A stretch of 64,000 nt of DNA from Alloascoidea hylecoeti (GCA_001600815.1 BCKZ01000003.1:310001-374000); one strand, 5' to 3'. Shown: positions 16,560-42,961, counted from the first letter of the stretch. Notes: generated by a model from the sequence alone, not told the origin. Made by a program: numbers and translations.

Positions 16560-17864
16560 TTAACTCCAATCTATATATTTTGCCATTGAATCACCTATCC
16601 ACGATATTATTTTAGAATACTCTCCAGAACTCACTGCATTGGCTCCTTCTTGAATTCGTTGTTCCATTGTTTCATCATCATTCAATCTAGTTCGTTTTAT
16701 GTATCGCTTAACAATTGGCCAAAAATATTCAATAGCATTTAAATCAGAACTTTGTCGTGGTAAATATACACAATTGAACTTATTTGATTCAATAACTGCC
16801 TCTATATTACGTTGATTTTCGATTGGTACGTTTTCTTGATCCAATATTATATAACAACCAGTATATTGTTTATCAGATTTTAATTTATCAATTAATGAAT
16901 GAATGAAATTGAGATAATGGGAAGTTGTACCACTTGGAGAATTATCAATTATAACAGATCCATCAGTTAATCTTCGTCTCTTTGTTGAAGAAGGAGCGGG
17001 CCTTTTATATTTCACTTCAAATTGTAATGGACCATTCCCACTGATCGCACCTAAAACTGTTGTTGATGTTGTTTTTAAAATAGGTGCTTTTCCTGGAGAA
17101 TCATTCACTGATTTAGCCCATCGGAAGGATCTCATTAAACTAACAATATATGTAGCTTCACCAACAAAGATACAATTTTTGGATAAATCTAATACCTCAA
17201 TCCATTCTTTAACCCATTCATATCTCTCGTCAGTGATTTCCGGATTATTAAATTTAATAGCTTTTTCTTCAGAATTCGGCAGTTTCAATGATAAATAACA
17301 ATATTCTTTGACAAATTTACTAATACCAGATTTTGAAACATTTAAATCACTATAAGCACTAGTTAATGTACCAAATAATTCATTAATTGTAATTGAAGTA
17401 TCATTATCAATTTCATTAACTAAAAACTTCTCCTGATCATCTGTTAACTTTGGTATACTAGGATGACGACCAGCTTTTGTTTTTTCTTTAGTAAATGCAA
17501 AATCAGGTTGTTTTTCATCTTCTTTTAACCATCTTCTAACTGTTGATAATGGAATTCCAATTTTTAACGCAGCATCTCTTGCAGTCATTGCTCTATTATG
17601 AACTAAGAAGAAAATATCAGATTTATCTTCTGGTTTATACCGTCGATATATTCCTTTATCTGACAATCTTAAATTTGTTTCTGATTCATCAATATCACCA
17701 TCACCAACTTCTACTTCTTTGTTTGATTCATTGAGCAAAGAATTGTCGATGGGGGGTTCATCTGGGTTGGTGTTGGAAATATCAGGATTGCCTGGAGAAG
17801 TTTGAAAGATATTTTGCCGGAGTGGATCTGGAACAGCGATAGCATCGTGAGATCTTTTAGCCAT
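16560..17864 (-). CDS. IS630/Tc1-type transposase-derived protein, copy 1 (HTH + degenerate DDE domain)
   Basis: HTH AMTARDAALKIGIPLSTVRRW, GRHP linker, CIFVGEAT (canonical FxDE), ENVP (DNAP) and YLPRQSSDLNAIEYFW (LPxYSPxLNPIE). No TIR or TSD seen. Confidence 0.88.
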   Translation of the reverse strand: MAKRSHDAIAVPDPLRQNIFQTSPGNPDISNTNPDEPPIDNSLLNESNKEVEVGDGDIDESETNLRLSDKGIYRRYKPEDKSDIFFLVHNRAMTARDAALKIGIPLSTVRRWLKEDEKQPDFAFTKEKTKAGRHPSIPKLTDDQEKFLVNEIDNDTSITINELFGTLTSAYSDLNVSKSGISKFVKEYCYLSLKLPNSEEKAIKFNNPEITDERYEWVKEWIEVLDLSKNCIFVGEATYIVSLMRSFRWAKSVNDSPGKAPILKTTSTTVLGAISGNGPLQFEVKYKRPAPSSTKRRRLTDGSVIIDNSPSGTTSHYLNFIHSLIDKLKSDKQYTGCYIILDQENVPIENQRNIEAVIESNKFNCVYLPRQSSDLNAIEYFWPIVKRYIKRTRLNDDETMEQRIQEGANAVSSGEYSKIISWIGDSMAKYIDWS

Positions 17865-20272
17865 TATTTATCGTAAATATTGAATAGAAGAATTTAAGAC
17901 AGGTATGAAATATATTTCAACTATGTGTATATTCTTTAAACACAAATTTAATATGTTTTATAGGTGTTTAAATTGGTGGTTAAAGTTGGTCACAAAAAGA
18001 ATATTTTGGTACCTTTTAACCGGGAAGTATGGATTAGCTGGAGCAAAGTAATCGACACACCACCGAAAGGTCTTTATTGGCCCCATAGGAAAAAAAGGGG
18101 TGTCATGTGACATAAAATAAAATGAAAAAATAAAAGAAATCAACCCTAAACATCCCTTTTCTCCTTCAAAATTATCAATTTTCCGATATAAATTTACTTA
18201 TATAATCCTCTCAATTCAATATATCATATATATAATTTTCAGAAACGTCTTACAGAAATTTGTCGAGGAATCCACATTTTAAGAAAAATGTATGGATGTT
18301 TAGCCAACTCATCTTTGTTTTCAACTGAAATATCATTAAAATGTTTTACATACATATGATCCTCTCATCTCAATATTTCTTATTTCCAATTTTAATAGAC
18401 AGTTCATGGAGGAATTTAGAGATATTCATGTTTTAACATAATATTTTCATGTAAGGGATTTACCCGTGAGAATATGCCAAACTTCCGAAGTTGATCTAGG
18501 GTATACTGTCTTATTCAACACAATCCGCCTAAAGTTGCTTACGTCTAATCAAATTTGGTATTCAGTTCAACCTCCCATTAGTCTGTTCCATCTATATCTT
18601 TATCATCGTTGCGTAGAGATTTAGTGTAGGTACTAGATACGTATATGCATACTACAGTACTAGATTATAAGAGAGCCATATATTATTTTGCGGAAGGTTA
18701 AATCAAACCACCGTACGATATAGAGGTATTTAATTAACTGACAATGGATATATGATAGATTATAATGAAGAGCAGATCTACATATTGATTGTTTATGGTT
18801 CTATTGGAAGAAGACATCACAGTTCAATCTGTGATCCTAAATTTCATTCAAAAAATTGAGTTTTTAATTGTAAACGTCGATCACTATATTATATGATGAG
18901 GGAAACAAAAATATTGAAAGATTTTGAGCATAATCTTGATCATGAGCCATTCCAGATTCTACTATTAGCGGTATAATAATTGTAATAAATACCTACATGT
19001 AAGCTTATATATCGACCACTAGTATTTGCTATTCACCCATATGTAGATTAATAATTCGGCCACATGATGTAACAACATTCGACCTGTCACCTCACTTAAT
19101 TTAGTCCATTCAGCTAAAATAAACATGTATGTCCACCAAAACATGGTCTCCGTTTTTCAAAAGGGTGTTAAGAGAAATCTTAGCCTAGTATTTACAGTCT
19201 TCGTTTATTTTGATACAGATCCTTTACTTCCGTTATGCACGAGAATCACAATTGAAATGATGTATTTTGTATAGGCATGACAGGCACCATAAGTTTTACG
19301 GTAGTAGATGTAGCACTGTTATATCAAAGGTTATAATTATTAAGATATCATGCTTTAGAAAAAAATAAGTCAACGGTGATCTGTTTCATTTCACTTATAA
19401 AAGTACAACTAGAAAGCTTAAGAAGTATCAAATACTTCAAAATAATGTGAACCTCTCTCTAAATCTAGAGACAACAGAACTGTGATTGTTTCTATTTTTG
19501 TTTAGCTCTTTGTCCAAATGACACTGTAATAGCCAAAGAGAATATATATTTGCAATCTGATCAAGGAATTAGAACTAAAGAAACACAGAACGATCTCCAC
19601 TGAGTTGTCTCTGGAGAAGGTTCATTTGAAACTTCTTTCTAGATTTGAAGCTTACAACCCAAATGAAACAAATAACCAATGACTCATTCTTTTCTAATGA
19701 CTCATTCTTATCTAATGTATCATATCTTAATAATATAAACAGGTACTGTACTGTAAAACTTATTGTACCTACTATATAATATCTCAGCACACCATTCTTT
19801 TGATTCCTGGTAAACCTTTGTCATCGCTTAGTCCTTATCGTCTATCTGAAGATTAACAAATAGCTTTAAAAAATAAAATGCAACGCTCCGCTATCGATTA
19901 ACTGAACTAGTCAGCTTCCAAAACGTCAATCTTTGTGTAGAACATCTTATTTTCTACCTTTCTTCCTTAGGCCAGTTATCAGCATGGTATCTAATATGGA
20001 TGGCAAAAGGTTCGGTGATGATCTACAGATGGGGTAATGTATTTTTTTTAACTTTACAGGTCAGTTGGGAGGAAATCTTAGTCACGGACGAAGTCTTACA
20101 TAAGTAAGACAACAGTGTGGAGACTCAACCCTGCTGGATAAATCCAGGACCCCGGGCAATACCCACTAAAACCCCCCAGATGTTTTCACCATAAGCACTC
20201 TAGTGATGGCTTCCCAGCCAAATGAAAAACGTCTAATAGTCTATTTGGGTGTGCTAATTCCCAAATCTTTTT

Positions 20273-20335
20273 GTCGTGCATCAGAATCGAACCTGGCAAG
20301 AACGATTAAGAGTGGTTGCTAATCAGTATGCACCT
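20273..20335 (-). other. Possible tRNA relic or solitary Pol III B-box
   Basis: Minus strand reads GTGCA...AACCA-CTCTTAA-TCGTT-CTTG-CCAGGTTCGATTCTGA-TGCAC: B-box, CTT anticodon-like loop and partial acceptor pairing, but no proper D arm. Confidence 0.3.
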
Positions 20336-20396
20336 AGATTATGTAAGAAACTATATTAGTATTACATAAGACAATATAAATATATTACATAATCTC

Positions 20397-20468
20397 GGCC
20401 GTGTGGTCTAGTGGTATGATACTCGCTTTGGGTGCGAGTGGCCCTGGGTTCAATTCCCAGCTCGGCCC
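20397..20468 (+). tRNA. tRNA-Pro(UGG), intronless
   Basis: GGCCGTGTGGTCTAGTGGTATGATACTCGCTTTGGGTGCGAGTGGCCCTGGGTTCAATTCCCAGCTCGGCCC, 72 nt cloverleaf, followed by a T-run terminator. Confidence 0.97.
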
Positions 20469-21232
20469 GTTATTTTTTAAAAGTGGCTTAATTTTTGTTG
20501 TAAAGTTAAAAAGCATCATGTTTTCAATAATCAAACAAAAACGACAAATTTCTTACACTTCTTAGGTTAAGATATAAGTTTGGATGACTTGATATGCCCA
20601 ACGTACAAAGATACTAAAATAATTCAAAATCTAAGCCTAATTTTAGAGATTTTATGGGTAAACAGAAGATTCAACTCGTGATCTCAAAATAGACTCAGAT
20701 GCTATTGTTCATTTAGCAAATATTTAACGACGGAATCTAATTCTTAGATATAAATAAATACAAACCAGACATTGTTGTACCATCAAGGTATAACACTTTT
20801 AAATAATTCTATACGTACATTTTAACCTTTTTATAGATCTTTATAATTTATAATAAAATGATAAAGTAAAAAAAAAAAAAATTCACTTCTAACTTTAATC
20901 ATAATGAAAGAAAAGAATTAATATTAAGAGCGGTAACAGTATTTTTGGTTAGAAAATATTACCAACAGGAGAATAGTATATCAGGATTACAGTGGGCCAA
21001 AATGATTGATATCTATTATTAGTATTGATAGAGTAAAAGGAATGGAGGCAATAATACTATAGAAAGTAACATTACTCAAAAAAGAGTGAACCTATAACAT
21101 TTATAATAGGAATTTTTGCCTAGTATTAGGTCTTTTTATTTTCACAAATTTTTTGGTTGTTATGAAGATAGTATTTAGAGATATAGTAAGTTTAATATAG
21201 AGCCTTAATGGCCACTTGAAGAAAAAAAAATA

Positions 21233-22560
21233 ATGGCTGAATTCAAAGTTATTAAGTTTGGAGCTAATAAAAGAAAATCAACAATATTTTATTCAATGGC
21301 TAATAAACATCCTCCTTTAAAATCACCTTTAAAACATTTTGAAAAAATATTAGAGGATGGATTCTATCATCTAGGTATTTCGATTCTAAGCGCGATCTGT
21401 TTATCAAAGATGTTAAAAAATCAAATAGAACATTTATTAGAGATTTATCATTAAGTGAAAGAGTTATGGCAATTAATTACCATGCCCATTTCTGGCCACT
21501 AAAGAATTCAGAAATACAGGACATTCAAAACGAAATTAAAAAAAGAATTCTTAATACTAAACTCTCAATAAGCACAGAAATATTAGAAACTCCACAATCA
21601 CTAGGAGGCTTTGGTCTTTTAAATATAAAATAACACTTCGAAGGGGTGTATGCATCTTGGATCATTAATTTATTAATTGAAGAAAATACAATTGCAATGA
21701 TTCACCATAGAGCGACTTTACAAGGCTTATGTAAAAATGAAGTTGATAACCATAAACATTTTGAAAAAAGACAATTTCTTCAATACCATTGGTATCATCC
21801 AGTCTGTAAATGTAAAACAGACAATTATCAGACAATTATCAAATTACCAATGTATCCTAGAAGATCACAAGCTAAGTCAAAACAATAAAAGATGGAACGT
21901 ATACTTGAAAGCCTTCAATGACTCAACCATTTATGAAAATGACGGTATATGGGGAAAATGGGTCAACTACCAGATCTTGATAAGATTATAGAATTACCAG
22001 TTCCAGAAGAAATATTAACTCATATAAAAACAAAAAAGAATGGAAAGATAGAAGAAAGATGCCTTCAAAGGGCATCAAAAAAAATACTACTCAAATAACA
22101 ATAAACCAATTATCCCAAAAATGGTCTGATAACATTATTAAACATAGAACTGAATTCGAATGGAAAAACTGGTGGGGAATCCTTCCAAAAATCAACAATA
22201 AAAATCGATTTCCAACATAAACTAAGTTTAAGAAATTATACCCATCACTGGACTCAAGTATTCACTATTGAAGATGAAAATAATCCAAGTTTCAAGGAAA
22301 ATAGAAGAATAAACCAATGCTTATTATGTTGGAAATCAAGTGTAATAATATTTGAACATTTTATGGGAAAAGATTATCAACTAATTGAAATGGTTTGTGA
22401 TTCCACAAGAAACACAAATGAATTAATTCAAATCAACAATATAGGAGAAGCAATTAGAAACTTGAGAAACAGAAGAAGATTCAGAACAACAATCAACAGA
22501 CAAAGAACTTTTAACTGCGGTGAAAGCTGACATTAGAAGAATCAATATTCAGTACTTGTG
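21233..22560 (+). mobile_element. Degenerate non-LTR retrotransposon (L1/Zorro-like) ORF2 3' fragment; boundaries approximate
   Basis: Broken frames give, in the expected order, NKRKS, FYHLGIS (RT end YLG motif), ISTEILETPQSLGGFGLLNIK*HFEGVYASWII (PxxxGGxG) and NQCLLC..EHF (Zn knuckle, ~22318). Confidence 0.72.
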
Positions 22561-22779
22561 ATCATACAAATTTATGACATATTCTTAAATAGTTATTTCA
22601 ATCAACAAAATTAACTTGAAGAGGCGCGTTTCGGAGCACAAAATACACACATATAAAGTTCTTCCAGGAAACATAAGAATTTGTTCGTTATCAGATATGA
22701 AACAAATATAAATTTAAATAAAGAAACTAATCTCAATTACAATATATAATTATATATTTAAATAGTTTATAATAAAATA

Positions 22780-23649
22780 TTTCTTGATCCACTATTATAT
22801 AACAACCAGTATATTGTTTATCATATTTTAATTTTCCGATTAATTAATAAATGAAATTGAGATAATGGGAAGTTATACATATACCACTTGGAGAATTATC
22901 AATTATAACAGATTCATCAGTTAAACTTCGACTCTTTGTTGTAGTAGAAGTAGGTCTCTTATATTTCACTTCAAATTGTAATGGACCATTTCCACTGATC
23001 ACGCCTAGAATTGTTGTTGATTTTTCTGGAGATATATTACCTGTTTTAGCCCATCAGATCTCATTAAGCTAACATATAAGTAGCTTCACCAACAAGGATA
23101 CAATTGGTTGATGGGTCTAATACACCACCCTATTATTTAATCCGTTCAGTTATTTCCTTGGAGATCTGAGGAATAGATATATTTAATTCGCTAGAAGAAT
23201 GTTTAGTTAATTCCAATGCCAAACAACAATATTCCTCAACAAGTTTTTTAATACCTCATTTTGAAACTTTTAAATCATTATATAAATGATTTAATTTTAT
23301 TAGATAATTCATTAATTAAAATTTTGTTTTTGATTATTATTTAATTTTGGTATATCACCACCATTTTATCTTTCTTTTGTAAATGCAAAATCAGTCTGAT
23401 TTTTGTCTTCTTTTAACCATATTCTAACTGTTGACAATGGACTTCCAATTTTTAAAGCAGCATTTCTGGGTGTCATTGCTCTATTATTTTATCTGTTGCT
23501 TCTTTAGATGATGGGCTTAAGCTTGTTTTTGATTCATTATTAACTTCATCAACAGATTCTGTGCCTACTACCACTAGTTTGTTTCCTTCATTGAGTAATG
23601 CATTATCAATTGGAGGTTCTTCTGTGATTAATATAGAGCTTTTGGCCAT
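22780..23649 (-). pseudogene. Pseudogene copy 2 of the transposase-derived family, 3'-truncated and frameshifted
   Basis: Nucleotide similarity to copy 1 (e.g. ttcttgatcc..attatataacaaccagtatattgtttatca, ttatatttcacttcaaattgtaatggaccatt, gtagcttcaccaacaa). ATG GCC AAA start at 23649 with the shared upstream leader. Confidence 0.88.
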
Positions 23650-24263
23650 TATTTACTCTAAAAATTGAATTTTTTTAAAATAGAATATATCTATATATCC
23701 GTGTTTTATAAATATGATTAAATGAGCACCAAAACAAAACTAAATATTTAAAATTTGGTAGGTTTTAAAATATTGATGAAATAGATACCCACAAGTGACG
23801 TTATCATAAGCTAGCCAAAAGATAAGTTGTAAATAGTTAACAATATTAATACTTCATGGACTAAAATTGAAATGACTGACTGAGGTATAATTGACATAAT
23901 GCTTGCGATTAGTTATTTTTAGGTAAACCAAAAAGTACACAATTGTCAAGTATGAGGTTGTAATTAATTGGTGCGTTTTCATCGATAATATTCACCGATT
24001 TGATATATGTCAGTTTCGGTAACCAACTTTATAATTATTCAAAATATTAATTAATAATATATAATATGTGTATTAGTATTTTTTATTAGCGTATTGGGAG
24101 TTTAAAAAGAACCATGAATTTGGCATACTGGGATGTTAAACATTGGCATAAAAGAAAACTAATCTGCAAATTAAAAGCCGTGACAGCACGCAAACCTACC
24201 GCCCCATAATTACCATATTTTCTTTGTGTCTTCTTTCTTTTCTTCTTCAAATTTGGATCATTA

Positions 24264-25746: not shown

Positions 25747-25999
25747 GTTTTAGATTTTATAAGATAGTAATAATTGATGATGATCGAAATGAAATGAAAT
25801 AAAATAAACAAATATAAATTAAAAAAATTAAAAAAAAATTTTGATATATAATTAGCTACTATAATATTAGCAAATAATGTAAGATTTTAATAAAAGATAT
25901 GAATAACTCTAAATCTATATCTCTTTTTCAAATTTATATAAACCATAATATAAAATATATTAGCATAATAGAAGAGAATATAATCAATTAATTGATTAA

Positions 26000-27575: not shown

Positions 27576-28526
27576 TCACCTCTGGAACGACTTCGCCAGC
27601 AACTTCTTGCACCGCACTTCGTCGTAGCTATCCCAAACCTCATATATCGATATCATCTCCTGTATCGTATCGATCATCAACTCCAAATCAACATTGCTCG
27701 TTGCTAAAAACTTCATGAACCTGCTGGACCTATCTTCGTACGGTGTTCCACCGACCACGGACGATCTTCTTCCGCCCACCGCTCCGGTTCCCCCGGTTCC
27801 TCCGGCTCCTGGTGGGGGTCCGAGTTTCCCTGTCTGGCCATTGGCTCCTGACGACCCTGGACCTGTACTGTTCGCGCCGCCTACGCCCGTTATGGCCGAC
27901 GAGCCCCCCGAAGGTGACGACAAAACCAACGTAATGTAAACCGCTGAAAATGCAATTATATGAGGTGGTACTATTAATGGTAGGTCAGAAACGTATGAAT
28001 CGTTAATTATAGACCAACAACTTTGCATTTCTTCCTCATCCTTTAAAAATCCCCCTCCCTCCATTTCTTTTAATTGTATTAATGTTTTGTATGGATGATG
28101 AACAATTAAATAACAATCCATTTCTTCAATAAGATAAAATTCACATTCTGCTATTTTTGTTGCATCATAACTAATTTGCTCAGGCCATAATGATTTAGCT
28201 TCTGATACCAATGTTCTAACATGTAATGGTGATTCTTCAACTTTACATGCAATATATAGTGCTGATGTAACCAATAAATAAACATTTATTTCGTTTATTG
28301 ATACTGATATATAAAATCTTAAACAATATGTTTCTGCTGTTGCTATAATTTTTTGTCTTAATGATAATCTTCTACCTAATTGTGATATTAATGAATGTAA
28401 AAAAATTCGAAAATGCGGTAATTCAAGTCCTGGTATGGTAACAAGTTGACTTCTTTTATTTGCTAATTCATCTTTTGAAAATTGCCATATTCTTCGTTGT
28501 GATGATGTCCAATAATCAGCACTCAT
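27576..28526 (-). CDS. SSN8: Mediator kinase-module cyclin C
   Basis: MSADYWTSSQR, YIACKVEESP, IAECEFYLIEEMDCYLIVHHPY, WSIINDSY and PPHIIA; Gly-rich insert near the C-terminus. Confidence 0.95.
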   Translation of the reverse strand: MSADYWTSSQRRIWQFSKDELANKRSQLVTIPGLELPHFRIFLHSLISQLGRRLSLRQKIIATAETYCLRFYISVSINEINVYLLVTSALYIACKVEESPLHVRTLVSEAKSLWPEQISYDATKIAECEFYLIEEMDCYLIVHHPYKTLIQLKEMEGGGFLKDEEEMQSCWSIINDSYVSDLPLIVPPHIIAFSAVYITLVLSSPSGGSSAITGVGGANSTGPGSSGANGQTGKLGPPPGAGGTGGTGAVGGRRSSVVGGTPYEDRSSRFMKFLATSNVDLELMIDTIQEMISIYEVWDSYDEVRCKKLLAKSFQR

Positions 28527-28724
28527 ATTTCATATTTTTATTTTCTTATCTTTGGTTGACGTTGTTGGTTTTGTGTATTATGACGTGTGTACGGATGTAT
28601 CAGTCCGTCTTTAAAAATTAAGATTTTATCAAGACTATATAAAGACATGATTCTCTAATCTTTTTTTTTTCCCTTTTCTTTTCTCTACAAAACACTTCCA
28701 AATAATTCTTCTTTATCATACATA

Positions 28725-28913
28725 ATGGCCAATACTATCGTTTCAAACAGAAATACTCTTTTATTCTTATTTGTTGTCCTTGTTACACAATTAACAGCCG
28801 TTTCTGCTGCAAACTCAACTTCTTCAAAAAGTTCTGGTGAATCTGTCTCATTATCTTTTTCAAGTGGTTTAATTGGTGCCTTCTTAGCTTCAGTTGTTGC
28901 TCTATTGGTATAA
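28725..28913 (+). CDS. 62-aa secreted/GPI-like stress peptide (Ddr2/Hor7-like architecture)
   Basis: Signal peptide, short NST/Ser-rich core and hydrophobic C-terminus GLIGAFLASVVALLV. TATATAAA ~90 bp upstream and A-rich start context. Confidence 0.7.
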   Translation: MANTIVSNRNTLLFLFVVLVTQLTAVSAANSTSSKSSGESVSLSFSSGLIGAFLASVVALLV

Positions 28914-30796
28914 TTTTACTCAATTTCAATTACAATTGATCCATAAATCAAATGTATAAATTAAACTGTTGTTTTTTCTGTACTGAAGTATTAATATTTC
29001 ATGCTTTTGTATTTCTATATATTTTCTTATAGATTAATTATTAACTAATAAACTTGCTTTTCATAAATAAATAATATCGTGTTTACTTATTTTTTTTTTT
29101 TTTTTTTTTTAAGAATATAAAAGGATTTGAGTTAGTAAATCAGATAGCAATTATAAAATAGAAAGATTATGTTATATTTATGCATAGTTCCATTATTCTA
29201 CATGATTTAATAATTATGCATATGTTTGCAGTATATTTAATCATCTGATCTGTTATAAACTTTCTTAAACTAGTAAAATATTTTGAGTAATTTTCTTTTG
29301 TAGATGATTTGAAAAAAAGTTTCATAAAATCTAAAGTATGTTTATCAACATCAACCAGAGTACGGAGTACATATATATTTATATTGTCTTACAAATCTTG
29401 ATGCCATCATTGTTAAATATTTTCTATATCGAACTATTATACCCCAAGTTTCCAATGGATCTAATAAATGTTATAGCAATTCTTGCCTCAGTTTCATCAA
29501 GATTTTTAATTTTCGTAAGATAATTTTCACCCAAAATTGTCAATTGTAATTAATAGGATATTGGCTATTACATTGACTTTAATTAATTCACTGATTTTAA
29601 ACTTTTAGGTTTTTAATTTTATATTATAGAAAAAAATGGATAAACCAAAGCTCTATCTCTTTAAAAAGAGGAATTGCATGCTGGACAAACTTAAGAAGAT
29701 TATCCGCGCTACAGCATCAAAAGATGTCCAAATATTTACCTTCATTATGGCCGAACTTAAATGGAAATGCTGTATATTTTGAAATTTCTTACGTCCTAGC
29801 TTGGTGAGCAAATATCTAGATACCTTATAACTAACGTATTTATATATCGCATACTGATAACAGATACTTTCTATATAATATTAATGGTAGTATTTATTTT
29901 GAAGATTAGAAAAGATAGAGCTGATGAATTGAGGCTTCAAGTAAACATAAAGTTTGAACAATAAACAATTATACTTTTTTTATGATGCCTCCATTTAAGG
30001 AGTAATTTCAAGTCCTCCACTAACTATATAAATAACAATAACAATTGAAAGATTTAAGTTCCTCGAAGCTCTTGATTGCAATTGATTAACTTAAATTTAC
30101 ATGGTCATCTTTAGCTATAAACATATCAAGTTTAAGAAGCGTGTCATGTTTCTAGCTACTCCCTCCAGATCCTCATTTATATTGATATTAATCTTGAATG
30201 AAATGACGTTATCATATATCAGGCAATGCCACCATGAAATTGATTCTGTACCGGTAGCTATTTTGGTTGATTGTTTAATAATCTGATAGTGAGCTATAAG
30301 TACAAATAAAGTTCAGAAATAATAAATAAAATGAAAACTTTAGTAGATTTTAGATATCGTTAATATATTTCGTATATCTTCTAAGGTAGATCTAGATCCC
30401 TAAAAGAAACTATTGTTTATAACCCATTAGATTTTTATAATAATAAACCAATAAACTGGTGATAAATAATATTTTTAAAATTACTTTACAAATAATCTAT
30501 AATTAAATTTCCCCATAAATGTACATATTTCGTCAAAAGAAATCTGTCAATCTCCAAAAATAGAGATTTCAAAACATCTTATAAATTAAAAAGAAAAAAA
30601 AAATCAAAATACTCTTAATTATAATTAAAACTTGGTTTATGTTGTATTTCAAATATTTCTTCACACATGTTTGAGCATTTAAATTTTCAGGATGATTTTT
30701 TCATTAAATTTTGTTAACTTACGGATTTTCACAGTACTACAAATTTCCTCAGTATGCTTCTGATATACGTATGTTTACGTAACTAGGAATAATTAC

Positions 30797-30981
30797 GAAC
30801 CAAATTACCAGCTGATTTAACTTACAAAGCTCCTAAAATTTATATTTTTTATTTTGTTTGTTTCCACTAGATCAAAGTTAATCATCTTGTGGCCATGAAC
30901 CAAATTACCAGTAGAATAAACCTACATATTTCCTAAGATTCTGTTCACTTGTTTTGATGCCCCAATCAGATCAAAGTTAAG
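30797..30981. repeat. Imperfect 100-bp tandem duplication
   Basis: GAACCAAATTACCAG at 30797 and 30897, each followed ~70 bp later by AGATCAAAGTTAA. Confidence 0.8.
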
Positions 30982-31259
30982 AAAAAGTTATCAATACTGT
31001 ACTAAATTATGATTGTCGACGAACCTCGATTGTCAAATACAGCCAATTTTTTTTTTTTTTTGTTGTTGTTTGTATTTATGCTCGAAATCACTAGCGAAGT
31101 TTAATTCCCACCTATATGATATGGCGGCACACATTTAATTCTCAGTATATAAAAACAAAGTGTATGATGATGATGAATCGTCAGTCTTCCAATAAATGGA
31201 GAATGTAATTACCGTATATGGTACAGCACATATACATAATTACTGTATATGGGTCTCCA

Positions 31260-31720
31260 AGGATGAGGATTTACCATATATGGAATGGATATATCACATT
31301 GCATATACACAAAAACTGGGAATAACTTCCTCTAAGATCTTATTTTCAAAAATTAACTATTAATGATTACCTTCATCATCTGAATATAAATCAATATTAT
31401 TATTAATGATCCGATGCTTTGTAAACTTCAATGTTGTAAAATCTAAAACCTCACGCTCTACTTGTTTTATTCTTTTCTGTTTGACATCTGCTAGCATTTG
31501 TGTTATCTAAATAACTGATATACCATGCTTCGAAAACACAGCTGCAGCATGTTTCATTAATTGGCGGTCGCTTTGCACCCGACTCGCCTGTTGATTTAAC
31601 TTGCTACAAATCCACCATCTGGTATAAGTTTTCGTATAACTATAACATTGCGGCTCGAAATAACCAATCACCGAACGTAAACTTAGGTCTCATTTCCATA
31701 CAAACACGATTTTCACATAC
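31260..31720. repeat. Dispersed degenerate repeat, copy A (homologous to ~48610-48985)
   Basis: Colinear shared blocks: TTACCATAT, CATCATCTGAAT(A/G)TAAAT, GTAAA(C/T)TTCA..GTTG..AAA.CTAAAAC.TCAC and TTCCATA..AACACGATTTTCA. Confidence 0.8.
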
Positions 31721-32457
31721 TTAAAATGTTAAAGGCTAAATGTCTAAACAGGGAGTTAGGGTTGATCTTTTGAAAATTTAGCTTTAGTTTAGCTGAATTC
31801 AGGGCAAGTCTTTCTTGATTACACAACTAATTATAAACACCTTTTTTTTTTCGCTCTCCTTAAATTATTTAGTTTTTAAGTTTACAATTATTTGCTATCC
31901 TTGAGATCGCTTTAGGATAGCCAATCGGCCCCTATTGTTAAATAATACAATCTTAAATTAACACAGTATTACCAATCGGTATACTTGATATCTTCTAACA
32001 CATGTAATATAACTTTTACTTTGCTCTTACTTTTACATTTAAAATATTACAATTACTAGACGTCAAAGCTTCATGAGTACGGTGTGTCGTATCTCCTAAT
32101 TAGGTATTTATGCATCGAATACGTGCATAAATACAGGATATTACAGCATATATGTGGTGTGAATTAATGAAGGTTCCATATTTGTATAGAGTACCCAGCT
32201 AATATAATCAAGAACGATAAAAATTCTATTTTCCATATAATTATTCATATGCATTGGCGTCTTTAAAAAGTCATTTGTTGGAGATTAGTGCCCCGGATTT
32301 CAAAATGTCGAGGAAACAAAGTCCATCTGAACTGACAATTTGGATGTCCGCTACCATAGGAACAATGCGTTATCCATTTATTTTTGGTATTTCGTTACGA
32401 ATTGATCTGGATGACCTTATAAAAACCTTAATTATATATATAATTAGTATTTAATTA

Positions 32458-32680
32458 TACAGCCGTTCCACTAAATTGCGTCCATTCGATGTAATAAAAC
32501 TTTGGCTATGATGATTACAAATCCCCATAACTAATTTTCGCCCGCATTTTTACCGGTTATGAGCCGTTAATATGCAGGGATATGTCACAGTTTCGGGTGC
32601 TCAACCCGGCCGAAATTTTGTTTATGGAGATGGTGGACAATTAATAATTCGAATGGCCAAAATTAAGTGAAGTGACCGTA
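32458..32680. mobile_element. Tc1/mariner-type MITE, 223 bp including flanking TA dinucleotides
   Basis: Left end TACAGCCGTTCCACTAAATTGCGTCCAT and right end ATGGCCAAAATTAAGTGAAGTGACCGTA form an imperfect 28-bp inverted pair, both terminating in TA. Confidence 0.7.
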
Positions 32681-33085
32681 TTTCCTCCTATACAGGATGA
32701 TGGCATGCACATTGAATATTCAAATTAAAATTATCTTAATGAATCGAATTTTAATTTTGTAAACCACTTGAAAGTTGAAATTCTAATTGCATCGCACTAT
32801 TTCATATTCAATCAAATTTCCTAATGCAGCAGTCCGGTTAGACAGACCAATAACAAGTCAAATTATGATAATTATAATCAGAAGGCAATCGTTTCACCCA
32901 TGTTATATTAAATGAAATGGCGCTTACCACCCACTAATTGTAAGAGCGGCTACCAATGTGTTCATATATAAGGTCTATAGAAATAATATATCGTTTGCCT
33001 TTCATTCTATATTTGTTTTCCAACTTGAGGACAGCGATATTAATATATCATTTTTCAACGTCTTGAGTTTTTTTTTAATTTCAAA

Positions 33086-34594
33086 ATGAGTGAAGATCTA
33101 CAGTTACAAAATGTCATAAGATCCCCAAACTCACTTGAATGGAGTCATGTTGTTTTGTCCGATCGCAATATTAGCTGTTCAGTCTGTGTAAGTTCAAGAT
33201 ATGAAAAACCACTATTGAAAACAGACTTATTTAGAGCATTGAGAAAAGTAATTCTCACTCAACCCTGGCTTTTAGCCAACTTATTTTACAAATCTGTAAA
33301 AGATTCTGATCCTTCTCAGATTAAATGGGCTTTAATTGATGAACTTGATTTGACAGATATTGTTGAGTTTAAAACTACAACTAAATCTGCCGAAGATGAT
33401 TCAAAAAGTCCTTTGACTTCCTTCGAAGTATTACAAATGAGTGCAACACGCTTTGCAGAAACTAACAAAAGAGATAAACCTCTATGGAAAATTATTGTTT
33501 ATAATAATATTGAAGTTTGCCTTCTTTTCTCACACGCTATAATGGATGGAATGTCTGCTATGAAGATTCAAAGACTACTGTTACACAACTTAAGATTATT
33601 GGATACCGAAAATGCCAATCTCAGTACAATAGAAAACAACTATACTAAAATAACACCCGCAGATTTCCATGGAAAATTTCAGTTTCCTCCTGACTCGAAT
33701 AATTTAATAACTTATAAACCCTCATTATCATTTTTGTTATTTATGTTGTTGATACATTTTCTTCCTCAATTCTTACTACCTAAATCACAGAAACAGCTGG
33801 GAATAGTTCCTCCACTGTTGAAAATTTCCTCGGAAGAAAAAGAGCTTCCTATTCCCGAAAAAGTTACTTGTCCGTCTCCTCAAGTTGCAATTATCAATTT
33901 ATCTTCGGCTGAAACTGCTAAAATAATGAAGGAATGTAAACTTCATAATGTAACGGTTACATCTTTTTTGAGTATCATAATGGCAGAAGCTGTTTCTCAT
34001 TTTTCAGGACAAAGACATATGCAAATATTTATGGCCGCTAATTCAAGAAAGTGTATTTCAGATTTGGCTCCTGAATTAAATGGGACAAACCCCGACGATG
34101 TATTAGGAGCTGGTTATAGTGCACTTATGGCAAGCATTTATAATAAGGATCATCCAAAAACTCTCTCTGGACAAATAACAAAATTCAATGAAACTCTTAA
34201 AGTAATGAAAACTCCAGAAAATTTAAAAACTAGATCCATGAACTGTTTTTCTCGTTTTGATGGTATGTATAAATATACAGAAGGTTTGTTCACTTCTGAT
34301 AGTCAAACCTCATTATGTGTATCAAATCTTGGCTACCAAAGAACAGAATGTATTCCAAATTCCAGATTCAATGTAGAAAGAATGACATTTTTTAATGGAA
34401 GTCCAGGAAATCCACTTCACTATAATATTATAACAACAAACTCAGTTGATGACCTGCCTCTAATGACCATATCAGTTATGGTTGGGGATAATCTTTTGCG
34501 TGCTTCAAACCAGACTTGTATCACCAGCTTAATAGAAGACATTAAAAGAATGGTAAAAACCCCTGATCTTATTATGAATGGGAGAAAGGATTAA
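33086..34594 (+). CDS. Alcohol acetyltransferase/N-acetyltransferase (Atf/Sli1 AATase family)
   Basis: KPLWKIIV, HAIMDG (HxxxDG catalytic motif), CKLHNVTVTS and VSNLG. Confidence 0.85.
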   Translation: MSEDLQLQNVIRSPNSLEWSHVVLSDRNISCSVCVSSRYEKPLLKTDLFRALRKVILTQPWLLANLFYKSVKDSDPSQIKWALIDELDLTDIVEFKTTTKSAEDDSKSPLTSFEVLQMSATRFAETNKRDKPLWKIIVYNNIEVCLLFSHAIMDGMSAMKIQRLLLHNLRLLDTENANLSTIENNYTKITPADFHGKFQFPPDSNNLITYKPSLSFLLFMLLIHFLPQFLLPKSQKQLGIVPPLLKISSEEKELPIPEKVTCPSPQVAIINLSSAETAKIMKECKLHNVTVTSFLSIIMAEAVSHFSGQRHMQIFMAANSRKCISDLAPELNGTNPDDVLGAGYSALMASIYNKDHPKTLSGQITKFNETLKVMKTPENLKTRSMNCFSRFDGMYKYTEGLFTSDSQTSLCVSNLGYQRTECIPNSRFNVERMTFFNGSPGNPLHYNIITTNSVDDLPLMTISVMVGDNLLRASNQTCITSLIEDIKRMVKTPDLIMNGRKD

Positions 34595-37397: not shown

Positions 37398-37985
37398 ACG
37401 TTATTTTTATATTTCATCTACTTATTTTTATATTTAAACTATCCCTATTTATGTAGTCATTGGAAGAAGAGGTATATAGACAGCCTTCTACATTATTTGG
37501 AATCCTCTTGGATGATACTGTGGGACTGTAAGACAAATTTTTCATTTTTCTTAAATATGGTTGATCGGTGGAGCCTTCCTTTCCAGGAGATTCTACCAAC
37601 CACAAAAAAAGGATTTCACTACAATATATCAGAAGGCAAGCGCCAAAGTTATAGCTCTTGAATTTTTATATTTTATTTTATATAATAATTTACCTAAATA
37701 ATATAAATCCACTGATTTTGGAAAAAAAGCATACGAAGCGTGGTTGGAAAAATCGAAAATATAAGATCTGTAAGATATTTGATGATGATTACTACATTTG
37801 GAGAAATATCTTCAAGGGATGCAGGAAACTCTATTATCTACATCACAATGTTCGAGGATCCCATAAACCCCATTCGAAGTGGAATTCAGACTTCTAAAGA
37901 GGAAAAGTGCACTAACTACACAATTCTCCCGAGATAACTATCCGTTGGGAGATTGGAGCTAGTGAACTTAATACGCGACGGGACT

Positions 37986-38771
37986 CAGTGCATCGCCGAG
38001 CAAACGAGGCCGAGCAGGACCAATTGGCGAGCAACGAACCGAGCAAGGATAGCATATAAGAGCATCACCTTAATTTCCCGTTTAGGAAGCCGCACGTGTT
38101 CGTGCATATCTATTCCATTTTTGGGAGAAAATGATTGTTTTTTTCCACCTCCAATTGCATTCTTTTCAGATCTTTAGGGTATACATGGCTCATGAGGGTG
38201 AGATGGATGGTGGGGGCTTTTGGGGGGTGTTTGTGATGCATTGTGTGGATTATGTGAGGTTTATGTAATACACATTTGAAGAGGAAAAAAAGGTGTCAGT
38301 TCGTTGGTGCCCTAATTCTAATTATAGTAGACCGTTATGACCATCTTTGTGAAAAATTGGAGAATATATTGAAATTTGTTCTTCGCGAGCTCGAGTCGAA
38401 CATCCAAAAAATTCAAAACAGGAGTAAAAAGAACAATTTTTTTTGACGAGCCAAGAAGGCGAGTATTGACAACTCTCTGAAACGAGCTTGTCGTCCTGGT
38501 CTAGGAGAATTTTGAGCGCTCGCCTCTAGTTCGGCATATATTTTTTCTGTCTTTTTTGCTCGTGTTTTTACTAGAAAGGTAACATATAGATCGCCTGGAT
38601 TGTTTATGAGCTCTACGACTCGCCTAAACGTTCGTCAGCCAAGAAATGTTTTGGGCTCACCTAGTAATCGTCAAAATCCGCTTCGATGCTGGCAATCAGA
38701 AATTTAGCATTGTTCGCCTCGATGTTCGCCAAAATGTGTGTGTTCGGTGTTCGTGTCTCGGCGATGCCCAG
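37986..38771. mobile_element. Non-autonomous TIR element (~786 bp), possibly hAT-like
   Basis: Left CAGTGCATCGCCGAG..ACGA..CCGAGCA versus reverse-complemented right CTGGGCATCGCCGAG..ACGA..CCGAACA. CGAG/CTCG/TTCG-rich subterminal regions, no recognisable coding capacity and no TSD found. Confidence 0.6.
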
Positions 38772-39215
38772 TGTTACAACATAAAATCTTTAACAGCGGG
38801 TAAAAGAATTTAGTGCATATGTTAAGTTTAATGCGCGGCGCAGGTCGATAATTATTGGTAGTAAAATTAGTCTCTGAGACAAAATTCGGTGTGGGCGCTT
38901 TCTAATAATAATTCGCATCATAATTTGTTTCACGCCAAATACTTAATATAAAGCTTTAGAGTATACGGCCGTCAAAATAAATTAAATATTTATAATTTTA
39001 CAGATATAGCACAATAAAATAGTTAAATAATTACATCAGAAGTAGTCCCGGCCTACCCACGAGAATACTCTTGGAAACTGATAGTATTCAAGGTTTCTTG
39101 AATTGGTTTTCCCTTTGTTGAATTATCATTCAGTCTGCTTCATTTAACTCTAAACAATAGCCTAAAAATCTTATATACCAAGTTGTAGCAGAGGATCATT
39201 AAAAGAGTGTTTGAC

Positions 39216-40481
39216 TTAAGCTCTTGCTTTTTCAATGGATTTGCTTACCCACGAGCATATTTTAGAATACTCTTGAGAACTGACAGCGTTTGCTCCTTGT
39301 TGAATTCGATGTTCCATTGTTTCATCATCGTCCAATCTGGTTCGTTTTATGTAACCTTGAACAATTGGCCAAAAATCTTCAATAGCATTCAAATCTGAAC
39401 TTTTTCGCGGTAAATACAAGTATTTGAAGTTTTTAGATTCAATAATTGCTTCTACATTACGTTGATTTTGAAGTGGAACATTCTCCAATAAAATATAACA
39501 GCCATCATATTGACTATCCGATTTCAATTTTTCAACTAAAGAATGAATGAAATTAAGATAATGAGAAGCAGAACCACCATCAACTACAATAGACCCATCT
39601 GTTAATTTTCGTCTTTTCAGGGAAGGAGCAGGTCTCTTATATTTCACTTCGAAGTGTAATGAGCCTTTCCCACTGATTGCACCCAGAACTGTTGTCGTTG
39701 TTGTTTTAATCGTAGGTGGGAGTTTTTTTCCTGTTTTATTCCGTAGGAAGGATTTCATTAAACTAACAGTGAAAGTAGCTTCACCAACAAAGATACAATT
39801 GTTTAATGGATTTAATACTTCAGGCAATTGACTGACCCATTGAGATCGTTCCTTGATAATTTGATGATTAGATACAGTTTTATCTTCAGGACAATTTTTT
39901 GAGAGTTTTAATGCCAAATAACAATTTTCCTTAACAAATTTTCCAATACCTGCTTTAGAAACTTTAACACCATTATACGCATTTGTAAACTTATCAAATA
40001 ATTCAATAATTGTAATTGAAGTATCATTATCAACTTCATTAACTAGAAATCTTGTTTGCTCATCAGTTAATTTTGGTATATCTGGACAAGGACCACACTT
40101 TGCTTTTTCCTTTGTGAAAGAATAATCAGGCAGTTGCTCATCTTTTTTTAACCATCCTTTGACAGTAGATAATGGGATTCCAATTTTTAAAGCAGCATCA
40201 CTAGGTGACATTGCCTTATTATGAACCAAGAAAAAGACATTAGATTTATCTTCTTGTGTATAACGACGATATTTTGCTCTATCTGACAATCTTCTCTTGC
40301 TGCTTAGACTTGTTTCTGATTCTTCGATACTTCTATCAACTTCTGCGTTCTCTTCAGGAACTAGTGGATCTTCCAGATCGTTTGATGTTTCCGGTACATT
40401 TTTGGTGGAGGGAGCGAGTTTTTCAGAGATATGTTGCTCCTGCTCAACAAGACCATCAGTAGAACGAGTCTTTCTAGCCAT
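39216..40481 (-). CDS. IS630/Tc1-type transposase-derived protein, copy 3
   Basis: Paralog of 16560..17864: AALKIGIPLSTVKGW, CIFVGEAT, LLENVP and YLPRKSSDLNAIEDFW. Confidence 0.88.
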   Translation of the reverse strand: MARKTRSTDGLVEQEQHISEKLAPSTKNVPETSNDLEDPLVPEENAEVDRSIEESETSLSSKRRLSDRAKYRRYTQEDKSNVFFLVHNKAMSPSDAALKIGIPLSTVKGWLKKDEQLPDYSFTKEKAKCGPCPDIPKLTDEQTRFLVNEVDNDTSITIIELFDKFTNAYNGVKVSKAGIGKFVKENCYLALKLSKNCPEDKTVSNHQIIKERSQWVSQLPEVLNPLNNCIFVGEATFTVSLMKSFLRNKTGKKLPPTIKTTTTTVLGAISGKGSLHFEVKYKRPAPSLKRRKLTDGSIVVDGGSASHYLNFIHSLVEKLKSDSQYDGCYILLENVPLQNQRNVEAIIESKNFKYLYLPRKSSDLNAIEDFWPIVQGYIKRTRLDDDETMEHRIQQGANAVSSQEYSKICSWVSKSIEKARA

Positions 40482-41659
40482 TATTTTATCTTCAGAATTA
40501 AGTAGAAAAAGAGCAGTATGAATGAAATTCGTTACAATTATATATTTATGTACCTAAATTCGTGTTTTTTGTGTAGGTATTTGATTTAAATTTGTAGTTC
40601 GTCACGAACAAAACGGGAGATTTGGTGAATTTTAACCAGAAGGATAGATGGATGGAAGAAAAGTAATTCACACGTTTCTTCAATTTCTATTGGATATATT
40701 AATTCACGTGATGTAGATAATTAATGACACCTGAAGTGAGAGATGATTGGTTGCTTGCAGATACCAATTTAATGGTCGCCCACCTGAATTAGATCTCCAA
40801 ATTTAACTGGATCAAATTAGATATTGTAATTAGAAAAAAGAAAAATATTAAATAAATATCATCGGCCTGATTGTGATCATGATATTAATCTGAAGTACAG
40901 TGTTTTCTCCTAGTCTTCCTGCGTAATTTTCGGGCAGTTAACGAAAACTTTGGTTAATTAGCACTAAAAGTAGCAACCAGCTTTAGTTTATAATTTCATA
41001 ACTTAAATATCATAGCTCTTTGAGAATTTAATGATTAAGTATACGTATAAAATGAAGTTGGAAATCATTTAAAAATTAATTAGCGTCACTTAGGTAACAC
41101 TTGGAATATTGGTACGGCTTCGTAAATATTATTGGTTAACCTTTAGGCCCAGAACTTGGCGCTTGTGTTGAGAATTATCTTTCCCAAAGGCGTTAAATTT
41201 ATATTAAAGTTAAACCAAAAAGAGGTGAATTCTTTACGAAACAATTTAACTCGTATATTTTGGAAATTTCTCATAATCAGAATATTCGCTACCAATTCAC
41301 TGGTAAATTTCTGCAATAATCGCTTTATAATGCCATGTACTAATTTTAGCTTCGCATTCATATTAAATAATTCCAACCAAATTTCTGGTCTAAAGACTGG
41401 CCATTAAATTACCCCACGAATCACCATCCTTATTATCTGGGAAACGCCAACTATAACGTTAAAAATTAGCCAAAAATTAGCCAATTGACTAATACTTATA
41501 TAGTTTGTTAATCACCAAATCTTTCGCTAACATCAATGAGAATTATGTTACGTAAAAAGAAATCATGTATTAGTATGAGAACAACAACAGCATATAACCG
41601 TTATATTAAATATCTACATAAAACACAATAATAAGAAGAGAAAAAGTGATTAATTATAA

Positions 41660-42961
41660 CTAAGCTTTTGCCATGGATTTACTTACCCATGAGCAAATTT
41701 TGGAATATTCTTGAGAACTAACTCTATTTGCTCCTTCTTGAATTCGTTGTTCCATCGTCTCATTATCCTCTAATCTAGTTCGTTTAATATGACTCCTAAC
41801 AATTGGCCAAAAATCTTCAATAGCATTAAAATCGGAACTTTGTTGTGGTAAAAATAAACAATTGAATTTATTTGATTCAATAACTGCTTCTATATTACGT
41901 TGATTTTCAAGAGGAACATTCTCCAACAAAATATAAGAACCTTCATATTGACCATCAGCTTTTAATTTTTCAATTAATGATTGAACGAAATTGAGATAAT
42001 GGGATGCAGAACCCCCATCAACTACAATAGACCCATCTGTTAATCTTCTTCTCTTAGTTGAAGAAGGAGCAGGTCTTTTATATTTCACTTCAAAGTTTAA
42101 TGGGCCTTTCCCACTAATTGCACCTATAACTGTTGTTGTTGTAGTTTTAAAAGCAGGTAATTTTCCTGGTGATTCATTCCCTGTTTTAGCCCATCGGATG
42201 GATCTCATTAAACTAACTGTAAAAGTAGCTTCACCAACAAAGACACAATTGTTTATTGGGTTTAATACTGCAGGCAATTCACTAACCCATTTAGATCTTT
42301 GTTTAGAAACTTGAGGAGAAATTTTTTCTCCAGAATGAGGTTTTAATAATTGTAATGCCAAATAACAATATTCTTTAACAAACTTACTAACACCTGATTT
42401 TGAAACTTTTAAATCATTATATGAATTAGTTAATTTATCAGTTAATTCAGTAATTGTAATTGAAATATCATTATCAATTTCATTAATTAAAAATTTTGTT
42501 TGTTCATCAGTTAATTTTGGAATATCTGGACGTCGACCACTTCTGGATTTTTCCTTCGTAAAAGCATAATCGGTTTCTACTTCATCTTCTTTTAGCCATC
42601 CTCTAACCGTAGATAATGGGATACCAGTTTTCAAAGAAGCATCACTGGCGGTCATTGCCCTATTATGTACCAAGAAATAAACATCAGATTTATCTTCTGG
42701 TGTATAACGACGATATGATACTCTCCCTGATGATTTTAATGGGGTTAGACTTATATTTGTGTCTAGTGTTATGTCTTTTCCGCCATTGACTTCAGCTTCC
42801 ACTTGCTCGTTTCCATCACTGATTGCTGGATCCTCCATCGGGGCACTATCTTGTGCGTCAATGAAAGTATCGCCATTTTCCGGGGATGGGGAGATTCTTG
42901 GAGGGAGAATTTGATCCTGTTCAGCGACACGAGGTTTCGTAGTACGAGTTCTTTTGGCCAT
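41660..42961 (-). CDS. IS630/Tc1-type transposase-derived protein, copy 4
   Basis: Tandem paralog: ASLKTGIPLSTVRGW, SGRRP, CVFVGEAT, LLENVP and FLPQQSSDFNAIEDFW. Confidence 0.88.
   Translation of the reverse strand: MAKRTRTTKPRVAEQDQILPPRISPSPENGDTFIDAQDSAPMEDPAISDGNEQVEAEVNGGKDITLDTNISLTPLKSSGRVSYRRYTPEDKSDVYFLVHNRAMTASDASLKTGIPLSTVRGWLKEDEVETDYAFTKEKSRSGRRPDIPKLTDEQTKFLINEIDNDISITITELTDKLTNSYNDLKVSKSGVSKFVKEYCYLALQLLKPHSGEKISPQVSKQRSKWVSELPAVLNPINNCVFVGEATFTVSLMRSIRWAKTGNESPGKLPAFKTTTTTVIGAISGKGPLNFEVKYKRPAPSSTKRRRLTDGSIVVDGGSASHYLNFVQSLIEKLKADGQYEGSYILLENVPLENQRNIEAVIESNKFNCLFLPQQSSDFNAIEDFWPIVRSHIKRTRLEDNETMEQRIQEGANRVSSQEYSKICSWVSKSMAKA

Follow-up and report, generated by a model that had tools for sequence, protein, structure and literature searches.

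The window, i.e. the whole 64-kb stretch of DNA that was analysed, contains three intact Tc1-like transposase-derived open reading frames (ORFs), here called c1, c2 and c3, as well as two relics, a pseudogene and a C-terminal fragment (Table 1). An earlier note on this DNA had described three full-length minus-strand ORFs, and all three were recovered. The identity among them is 59-64% (59% and 64% relative to c1), and a fourth intact member of 431 aa, P0004, lies outside the window. The GC3 of the copies is 0.17-0.22, and the host mean for 15 neighbouring genes is 0.18 +/- 0.07.

Table 1. Features of the transposase-derived gene family; positions are counted from the first letter of the window.
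Feature	Position	Strand	Remarks
c1, intact 434-aa Tc1-like transposase-derived ORF	16560..17864	-	G235/E344/E379; 'DQ' insertion before E344
c1 5' flank	17865..18200	-	alignable with c2 and c3 flanks at approximately neutral identity; CACATG and CCAAT islands
Pseudogene, c1 lineage	~22751..23652	-	stops and frameshifts; truncated at second catalytic position
Relic of a further copy	39062..39180	-	~40 C-terminal codons with in-frame stop; 36 bp downstream of c2 stop codon
c2, intact 421-aa ORF	39216..40481	-	G233/E333/E368; linker GPCP, not GRxP
c2 5' flank	40482..40820	-	alignable with c3 and c1 flanks; CACGTG and CCAAT
c3, intact 433-aa ORF	41660..42961	-	G243/E347/E382
c3 5' flank	42962..43300	-	alignable with c1 and c2 flanks; CACGTG and CCAAT

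The pseudogene is decayed, as had been claimed: three reading frames are needed to follow it, it contains many in-frame stops, and it ends just after 'DQE'. Aligned with c1, it shows 74% identity over 780 columns and 84 gap positions; the two have the IIDNSPSG and DQE indels in common, the latter corresponding to a two-residue 'DQ' insertion immediately before the Glu. Moreover, the pseudogene retains the Gly codon GGT (LVGEAT). One pseudogene and one relic within 27 kb indicate turnover in the family. Beside the truncated end of the pseudogene, broken ORFs at 21.2-22.5 kb were considered as a LINE relic; this assignment was unsupported, as none of the six fragments had a Pfam reverse-transcriptase match and neither of the two compared with the PDB had a sequence match.

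All three proteins match Pfam DDE_3 (PF13358) with 44.4, 45.0 and 44.6 bits for c1, c2 and c3, respectively (cut-off 28.6 bits), while their matches to Pfam HTH families all fall under the cut-offs. The helix-turn-helix (HTH) region said to be retained is nevertheless present in an AF2 model of c3 (pLDDT 75.2), which predicts two HTH units (residues 88-128 and 152-198), an RNase H-like domain from residue 239 and a disordered N terminus (residues 1-73). The earlier note had suggested structure prediction as a check of the RNase H fold; in Foldseek, the model matches Mos1 (E 1.7e-10), Sleeping Beauty (5.4e-7) and SETMAR (1.9e-5), and the chains of the Mos1 transpososome are matched over their full length. 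The KRRR/KRRK motif, a putative nuclear localisation signal, is found in 3/3 copies. By contrast, the GRxP-like linker holds for two of the three copies, i.e. c1 (GRHP) and c3 (GRRP), whereas c2 has GPCP. The alignment of the copies also bears out the N-terminal extensions with in-frame indels and the TCT/TCA/TCC variation of the Ser codon ahead of D-L/F-NAIE. Around the former active site, NC[IV]FVGEAT, ENVP and SSD[LF]NAIE are invariant in the family.

The altered catalytic triad described earlier is shared by c1, c2 and c3, which carry FVGEAT, ENVP and NAIE at the three positions. G/E/E is found in 4/4 intact members (c1, c2, c3 and P0004), none of which has the canonical D/D/E triad, and the G and the first E are also present in the pseudogene. 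Among 40 relatives, the catalytic columns contain D in 36/40, D in 37/40 and E in 35/40, and when the family profile is aligned with Sleeping Beauty SB100X, these columns coincide with its DN..H and LNPIE motifs. The 34-residue spacing that separates the second acidic position from the third was likewise verified in all three copies (Table 1); MAFFT with the 40 relatives placed the inserted Asp of c1 in the D column, a reading that gives a spacing of 36. The first-position Gly codon is GGT in c1, c2, c3 and the pseudogene. The second-position Glu is encoded by GAA in c1 and in the pseudogene, and by GAG in the other two copies, c2 and c3; this synonymous variation suggests that the Glu has been held through change. 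From the residues at these positions, we infer that the G/E/E proteins have lost catalysis.

The family is small. In a collection of ~15 billion proteins (5.8 billion clusters), it comprises only four proteins (c1, c2, c3 and P0004), all from NCBI assemblies. Many near-identical copies had been named as the mark of a mobilised element; instead, each of the four members forms a singleton cluster, with 61-66% mutual identity. The next relative is 33% identical and belongs to the fungal Tc1/"Dici"-type DD34E transposases, and this collection yielded nothing related at intermediate identity, from 33% to 61%. Among the nearest database relatives are proteins of Rhizopus and Neoconidiobolus and one protein of 434 aa. 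Within the 64-kb window, tblastn (E up to 5) detected no DDE-intact copies and no further relics. A metagenome scan with the four-protein alignment gave 219 pattern-matching stretches, one of which, L001, was confirmed, and no close family relative; the ESM Atlas returned generic DDE_3 clusters only. The host genes UGP1 and GH76 have one homologue each (80% and 79% identical, respectively), on contigs other than that of P0004. In a quick IQ-TREE search, the group is monophyletic (SH-aLRT 100) and sits on a long stem (1.22 changes per site). This monophyly, the Gly common to four intact proteins and the pseudogene, and the Glu at the second position all agree with the earlier proposal, and they support that inactivation probably preceded duplication.

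For each copy, we compared the highest upstream-downstream flank complementarity with 200 shuffles. In agreement with the reported absence of terminal inverted repeats (TIRs) at the intact copies, 38, 97 and 188 of the 200 shuffles reached the observed value for c1, c2 and c3, respectively. As a positive control, L001, a DDE-intact relative with 32% identity, scored 36.5 for flank complementarity, where its shuffles reached 20 at most, and had 97-nt inverted-repeat arms by the same tests. No TIRs were found around the c3-c2 pair, and none of the copies had recognisable TA-flanked element ends. Similarity between the copies stops at the stop codon with no shared 3' flanks, while the 5' flanks can still be aligned at about the identity level of 4-fold sites (58-68%). 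Because similarity ends at the stop codon while the 5' flank aligns, a TIR-to-TIR unit was not what was copied. The copies are discrete units of ~1.65 kb between unrelated sequences; these discrete units and the one member elsewhere form a pattern that resembles mobile-unit dispersal. That the copies spread as host genes, as the earlier note had it, would be one way to account for them.

A dN/dS analysis had been put forward as a check of domestication, and the core ω was well under 1 by every method used. A star-tree codon model (ML, 355 codons) gave a core ω of 0.161 (LRT 187.3, p 1.3e-42), and pairwise ML estimates in Biopython were 0.145-0.172. Counting methods gave 0.30-0.43 overall (NG86 0.31-0.34; LWL85 0.36-0.43), i.e. 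only moderate constraint. The ω is 0.126 for the DNA-binding part and 0.173 for the RNase H-like part, whereas the disordered N terminus (70-80 residues) is near-neutral (0.525, p 0.018). The copies differ from each other by an ML dS of 0.8-1.25 in the core. In neutral simulations starting from c3, 3/300 ORFs were stop-free at d=0.05 and 0/300 at each of d=0.1, 0.2 and 0.3; the decayed pseudogene serves as an internal control. We conclude that both domains are under purifying selection. Transposase ORFs of live elements likewise show ω < 1, and the argument for domestication therefore hinges on the predicted inactivity of G/E/E. The turnover of copies and the GPCP linker of c2 also weigh against domestication.

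In total, the shared triad, purifying selection, absence of TIRs, low copy number and retained fold suggest that these genes are probably a lineage-restricted, domesticated family of catalytically dead transposases acting as nuclear DNA-binding proteins. The ancestor would have been a fungal Tc1-type transposase (DD34E, 'Dici'/Tc1-MP1-like), one copy of which may have lost the first catalytic Asp by a GAT to GGT change (Gly), acquired Glu at the second position and lost its TIRs. Local multiplication would then have produced four or more intact genes; a later duplicate may have decayed and another copy may have been mostly deleted. We infer DNA binding, nuclear location and a benefit to the host: the proteins would most likely be nuclear, sequence-specific DNA-binding factors in which the bipartite HTH domain and the GRxP-type linker bind DNA, the KRRR/KRRK motif could confer nuclear entry, and the RNase H-like domain, no longer cutting, might provide a structural or oligomerisation scaffold. 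By analogy with known domesticated transposases, we propose that they may have a role in chromatin, transcription or silencing.

Alternatively, the genes could be components of a transposon family, either a dead DNA-binding derivative kept to help or regulate active elements or copies mobilised in trans whose ends have decayed. We consider this fairly unlikely. A selected, DDE-less parallel is offered by CDS3 of Dici in Diutina catenulata (PMC13469147), and gene-sized units without a shared 3' flank, scattered between unrelated genes, would fit as well, as would the location of P0004 outside the window. However, the window holds no DDE-intact copy (tblastn, E up to 5), TIRs are absent from the single copies and the c3-c2 pair, the base composition matches that of the host, and the protein collection that holds the four family proteins from NCBI assemblies lacks any 33%-61% relative. 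It is very doubtful that the proteins are still nucleases or recombinases, with a non-canonical acidic set and programmed DNA cleavage of the kind carried out by Kat1 in Kluyveromyces lactis. The acidic set would consist of the Glu at the second and third positions plus an acidic residue nearby, such as the conserved Glu that follows the Gly or, in c1, the Asp of 'DQE'. Constraint on the RNase H-like domain is as strong as that on the DNA-binding domain, the surroundings of the former active site are invariant and the 34-residue spacing is preserved, all of which would fit a nuclease; yet Gly is unable to coordinate a metal ion, and no TIR-like target lies near the genes. On the β strand of the AF2 model (E239-248), the neighbouring Glu is predicted to face the other side. 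Moreover, mariner-type transposases are inactivated by conservative D/E swaps at catalytic positions, which also counts against retained nuclease activity.

It is highly improbable that the copies are non-functional relics of an extinct transposon with decay still pending. One copy is indeed a pseudogene and another a fragment, and the N-terminal 70-80 residues are near-neutral; however, ω = 1 is rejected for the core (p ~1e-42), no simulated ORF remained open at d >= 0.1 compared with the core dS of 0.8-1.25, and three full-length ORFs persist alongside a decayed sibling. A more specific and unlikely role is transposon immunity, in which the dead transposases would still recognise Dici/Tc1-type element ends and either block or silence these elements, through dominant-negative binding or recruited repression. 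The host would then amplify and turn over the genes locally as new element variants arrive, and the fast-evolving N-terminal tails might be the adaptable part. A bolder alternative is that, in this deep-branching lineage of yeasts, the proteins would guide or scaffold a programmed rearrangement of DNA.

The domesticated family invites comparison with several known systems. Dici/Tc1-MP1 belong to the IS630-Tc1-mariner superfamily and are DD34E transposons of fungi (PMC13469147, PMC9977792), with members mostly from Mucoromycota (PMC13469147). Their proteins have 432-478 aa (here 421-434 aa) and, as in the present family, a PAIRED-like double HTH, a GR(P/K)(P/A)-type linker, a basic KKRK-like motif within the catalytic core and a 34-residue spacing of the last two catalytic positions (PMC13469147). 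Dici/Tc1-MP1 have a D/D/E triad and many near-identical copies; by contrast, the present family has G/E/E and four diverged copies without TIRs. The link to Dici rests on the shared features and the Mucorales relatives, the nearest such transposase being just 33% identical. Like the genes described here, CDS3 of Dici1/Dici2 is a transposase-derived ORF without the DDE triad that retains a DNA-binding (homeodomain-like) fold, with purifying selection acting on sites within it; it has 347-398 aa and lies inside a TIR-bounded 4-kb element beside an active transposase (PMC13469147), whereas the present genes are solitary, with neither TIRs nor an active partner present in the window.

SETMAR, CENP-B/Abp1/Cbh (pogo) and Drosophila CG4570, CG14478 and cag are, like the present family, ITm-derived, have lost their TIRs, and keep a DNA-binding module and an ORF under purifying selection; they have cross-species orthologues and known expression (PMC13548663, PMC10799480). 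The transposase domain of SETMAR is matched by the predicted c3 model. The present family differs in its source, a Tc1/Dici-like DD34E lineage in a budding yeast rather than pogo or mariner, and in having both modules at full length, no fusion partner and local multiplication. Host-kept genes of transposase origin in budding yeast include Kluyveromyces lactis Kat1 (hAT) and alpha3 (MULE), as mentioned in the Dici study (PMC13469147). Both belong to other superfamilies than the present family. Kat1 and alpha3 keep catalysis for mating-type switching, whereas in the present family the first catalytic Asp is gone.

Budding yeasts contain few DNA transposons and, to our knowledge, yeast genes of transposase origin derive from hAT, MULE and pogo elements. 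A full-text literature search found no paper on such a family in Saccharomycotina; the closest is the 2026 Dici study, in which the DDE-less CDS3 lies within the mobile element itself (PMC13469147). If our reading is correct, the family would be an independent case in which a Tc1/Dici-type DD34E transposase was kept as a small multigene family, both domains being selected after loss of the active site. It would also be a tractable case: a dead, full-length RNase H-like domain raises the question of its job without DNA cutting.

Upstream of the genes, conserved promoter elements (CACGTG, CCAAT and other islands) were considered and rejected: identity in the first 200 bp is ~35-65% per 50-bp bin and no higher than at 4-fold sites (58-68%), and the placement of CACGTG in c2 shifted between MAFFT runs. 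The CACGTG/CCAAT motifs are leads only, as candidate sites seen in the sequence. In c2, the 33 nt before the ATG are not above neutral without a gap. Between c1 and c3, 30/33 of these nucleotides are identical (p 2e-4), the sole stretch clearly above neutral.

The three intact, minus-strand, Tc1-like transposase-derived ORFs claimed in the earlier note (c1, c2 and c3) were recovered exactly in position and length, and each matched Pfam DDE_3 with 44-45 bits (cut-off 28.6). The pseudogene that it had also reported was located by tblastn as a decayed copy; it contains indels specific to the c1 lineage and retains LVGEAT with a GGT Gly codon. Moreover, a C-terminal relic was detected that lies 36 bp past the c2 stop codon, suggesting that a third tandem copy once existed here and was largely lost by deletion. 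The five pieces share one strand, and permissive tblastn (E up to 5) detected no further copies in the window. A fourth intact member, P0004 (431 aa, NCBI assembly), is encoded outside the window.

Features located in the window, in order of position
Feature	Coordinates	Strand	Description
c1	16560-17864	-	intact ORF, 434 aa
33 nt directly 5' of c1 ATG	17865-17897	-	
MITE-like unit	19336-19734		~400 bp; 37-nt inverted ends, 84% complementary
tRNA-Pro (UGG)	20397-20468	+	sole tRNA gene of the window
broken ORFs	21200-22530	+	short, clustered
pseudogene	~22751-23652	-	tblastn; three frames, full of stops, ends just past DQE
ORF-poor stretch	28526-33086		4.5 kb
108-bp repeat	31347-31454		78% identical to 48718-48824
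C-terminal relic	39062-39180	-	repeat search and blastn; ~40 codons, in-frame stop
c2	39216-40481	-	intact ORF, 421 aa; 59% identity to c1
c3	41660-42961	-	intact ORF, 433 aa; 64% identity to c1
33 nt directly 5' of c3 ATG	42962-42994	-	
ORF-poor stretch	45728-53900		8 kb
108-bp repeat	48718-48824		
RCR-domain ORF	49972-50265		small

The catalytic columns were scored in an alignment of the family with 40 relatives drawn from an exhaustive HMMER search of the protein collection, which gave 634 matches at E up to 1e-3. The best match outside the family was 33% identical, and no relatives between 33% and 61% identity were found in this search; those with names comprise Rhizopus proteins annotated 'Tc1-like transposase DDE domain', one Neoconidiobolus protein and JGI 'transposase' calls. 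The claimed Gly/Glu/Glu triad was present in c1, c2 and c3 and also in P0004, while the relatives mostly have D/D/E, i.e. D in 36/40 at the first column (G in 3, S in 1), D in 37/40 at the second (N in 2, E in 1) and E in 35/40 at the third. The alignment profile matched Sleeping Beauty SB100X (E 6.3e-11), the catalytic columns landing on its DN..H and LNPIE motifs. The proposed spacing of 34 residues between the two Glu was found in all three ORFs, with the qualification that MAFFT puts the inserted Asp of c1 in the D column, under which reading the spacing is 36; this 'DQ' insertion directly before Glu is common to c1 and the pseudogene. Gly is encoded by GGT in c1, c2, c3 and the pseudogene; for Glu, c1 and the pseudogene use GAA, and c2 and c3 use GAG. 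Among the relatives, P0092 and P0114 form a well-supported pair (SH-aLRT 100) in which G and S occupy the first catalytic position and DD/DT stands instead of DN after the second; the pair may represent an independent inactivation in other organisms.

The ORFs were compared in a 3-taxon codon model (GY94, F3x4) tested against omega = 1.

Codon-model estimates for c1, c2 and c3
Region	Codons	Omega	LRT	p
all	432	0.208	181.8	
ordered core	355	0.161	187.3	1.3e-42
N-terminus	77	0.525		0.018
DNA-binding part	150	0.126	102.5	4.3e-24
RNase H-like part	203	0.173	93.2	4.8e-22

Pairwise dN/dS, which the earlier note had proposed as a check, gave a core omega below 1 by every method (0.145-0.172 by Biopython ML, 0.31-0.34 by NG86 and 0.36-0.43 by LWL85), the spread arising because of the strong AT bias at third positions. 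In neutral simulations from c3, which modelled substitutions and ignored indels, 3/300 ORFs were stop-free at 0.05 substitutions per site and 0/300 at 0.1, 0.2 and 0.3. That the intact copies are plain relics is effectively excluded. In a quick tree, the family was monophyletic (SH-aLRT 100, stem 1.22 changes per site). Because all copies have G/E/E and the family is monophyletic, the measured constraint acted on proteins already without the canonical triad.

A structure prediction, also suggested in the earlier note, was run as an AF2 model of c3 built from 44 sequences (mean pLDDT 75.2, pTM 0.66). The model has disorder at 1-73, three-helix units at 88-128 and 152-198 and an alpha/beta domain from 239. 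Its top Foldseek matches were Mos1 transpososome chains (E 1.7e-10), the catalytic domain of Sleeping Beauty (5.4e-7) and the transposase domain of SETMAR (1.9e-5).

Consistent with the claim that the intact copies lack TIRs, only chance-level inverted repeat pairs surrounded each copy. When 600 nt upstream were locally aligned with the reverse-complemented 400 nt downstream, the observed score was equalled in 38 (c1), 97 (c2) and 188 (c3) of 200 shuffles; the control L001, a DDE-intact metagenomic relative with TIRs, scored 36.5 vs a shuffle maximum of 20, with 97-nt arms. Similarity between copies comprises the ORF and the 5' flank (~130 bp at most by BLAST, ~330 bp by MAFFT) and ends 3' at the stop codon. 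Within the first 200 bp, the 5' flanks are ~35-65% identical in bins of 50 bp, which is not above 4-fold sites (58-68%). Neutral flanks are still recognisable at this age and, therefore, a copied 3' TIR would have shown. The c3-c2-relic layout suggests tandem duplication followed by deletion. At 0.17-0.22, GC3 of the three ORFs is the same as in 15 host genes (0.18 +/- 0.07). The 33 nt directly 5' of the ATG are 30/33 identical between c1 and c3, exceeding the neutral level (p 2e-4), and c2 has an indel and more changes; the match between c1 and c3 suggests that this stretch is under constraint as a leader or core promoter.

The strongest competing reading is that of a transposon-borne regulator, or of copies mobilised in trans. 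The accessible part of PMC13469147 defines the fungal Dici family, most members of which are in Mucoromycota, with transposases of 432-478 aa (PAIRED domain, GRPR-like linker, KKRK inside the DD34E core) in elements of mean length ~1.75 kb with TIRs of 50-187 bp; D. catenulata elements additionally carry CDS3, a DDE-less, constrained ORF that would be the model for such a regulator. Apart from the triad, c1, c2 and c3 match this protein description but are without the element features. Four family proteins, every one a singleton cluster, came out of a word-indexed search across 5.8 billion clusters, and not the many near-identical copies that the earlier note had named as speaking against its claim. 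We consider this rival rather unlikely, and a non-canonical nuclease, which ranks behind it, improbable. In total, the earlier observation is confirmed and slightly extended: c1-c3 and P0004 probably form a lineage-restricted family of transposase-derived proteins that selection has kept and that are predicted to be catalytically dead and to bind DNA in the nucleus.

The literature searched yielded no report of a domesticated Tc1-type family in budding yeasts. The accessible part of PMC9977792 describes the DD34E element Tc1-MP1 from Mucorales and, in Ogataea, Tc1-OP1; that of PMC13548663 gives criteria and cases for Tc1/mariner domestication in Drosophila; and that of PMC10799480, a fungal host-TE fusion screen, does not mention the family.

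The window combines AT-rich sequence (GC 0.23-0.39 per 2 kb) with a high gene density and an ordinary budding-yeast gene set (OPT transporter, dioxygenases, GH76 mannosidase, amino-acid transporter, TLC/Lag1 protein, cyclin, AATase, rhodopsin-like protein, UGP1, Dbf4 and Slm4). In the protein collection, the best named homologues are <=76% identical for UGP1 (Lipomyces, Dipodascopsis, Yarrowia, Nadsonia) and <=57% for GH76 (Ascoidea, Wickerhamomyces) and, therefore, the host yeast is without a close named relative there. Single closer NCBI homologues exist for UGP1 (P0187, 80%), barely above its best named species, and for GH76 (P0307, 79%), far above; these may belong to a sister genome or to a second set of genes. 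Between c1 and the pseudogene lies the MITE-like unit; the broken ORFs adjoin the pseudogene at its truncated 3' end, and a LINE relic as their source had no support from Pfam or PDB sequence searches. The two ORF-poor stretches, unusual for a compact yeast genome, have the 108-bp repeat in common, and the longer one contains the RCR-domain ORF.
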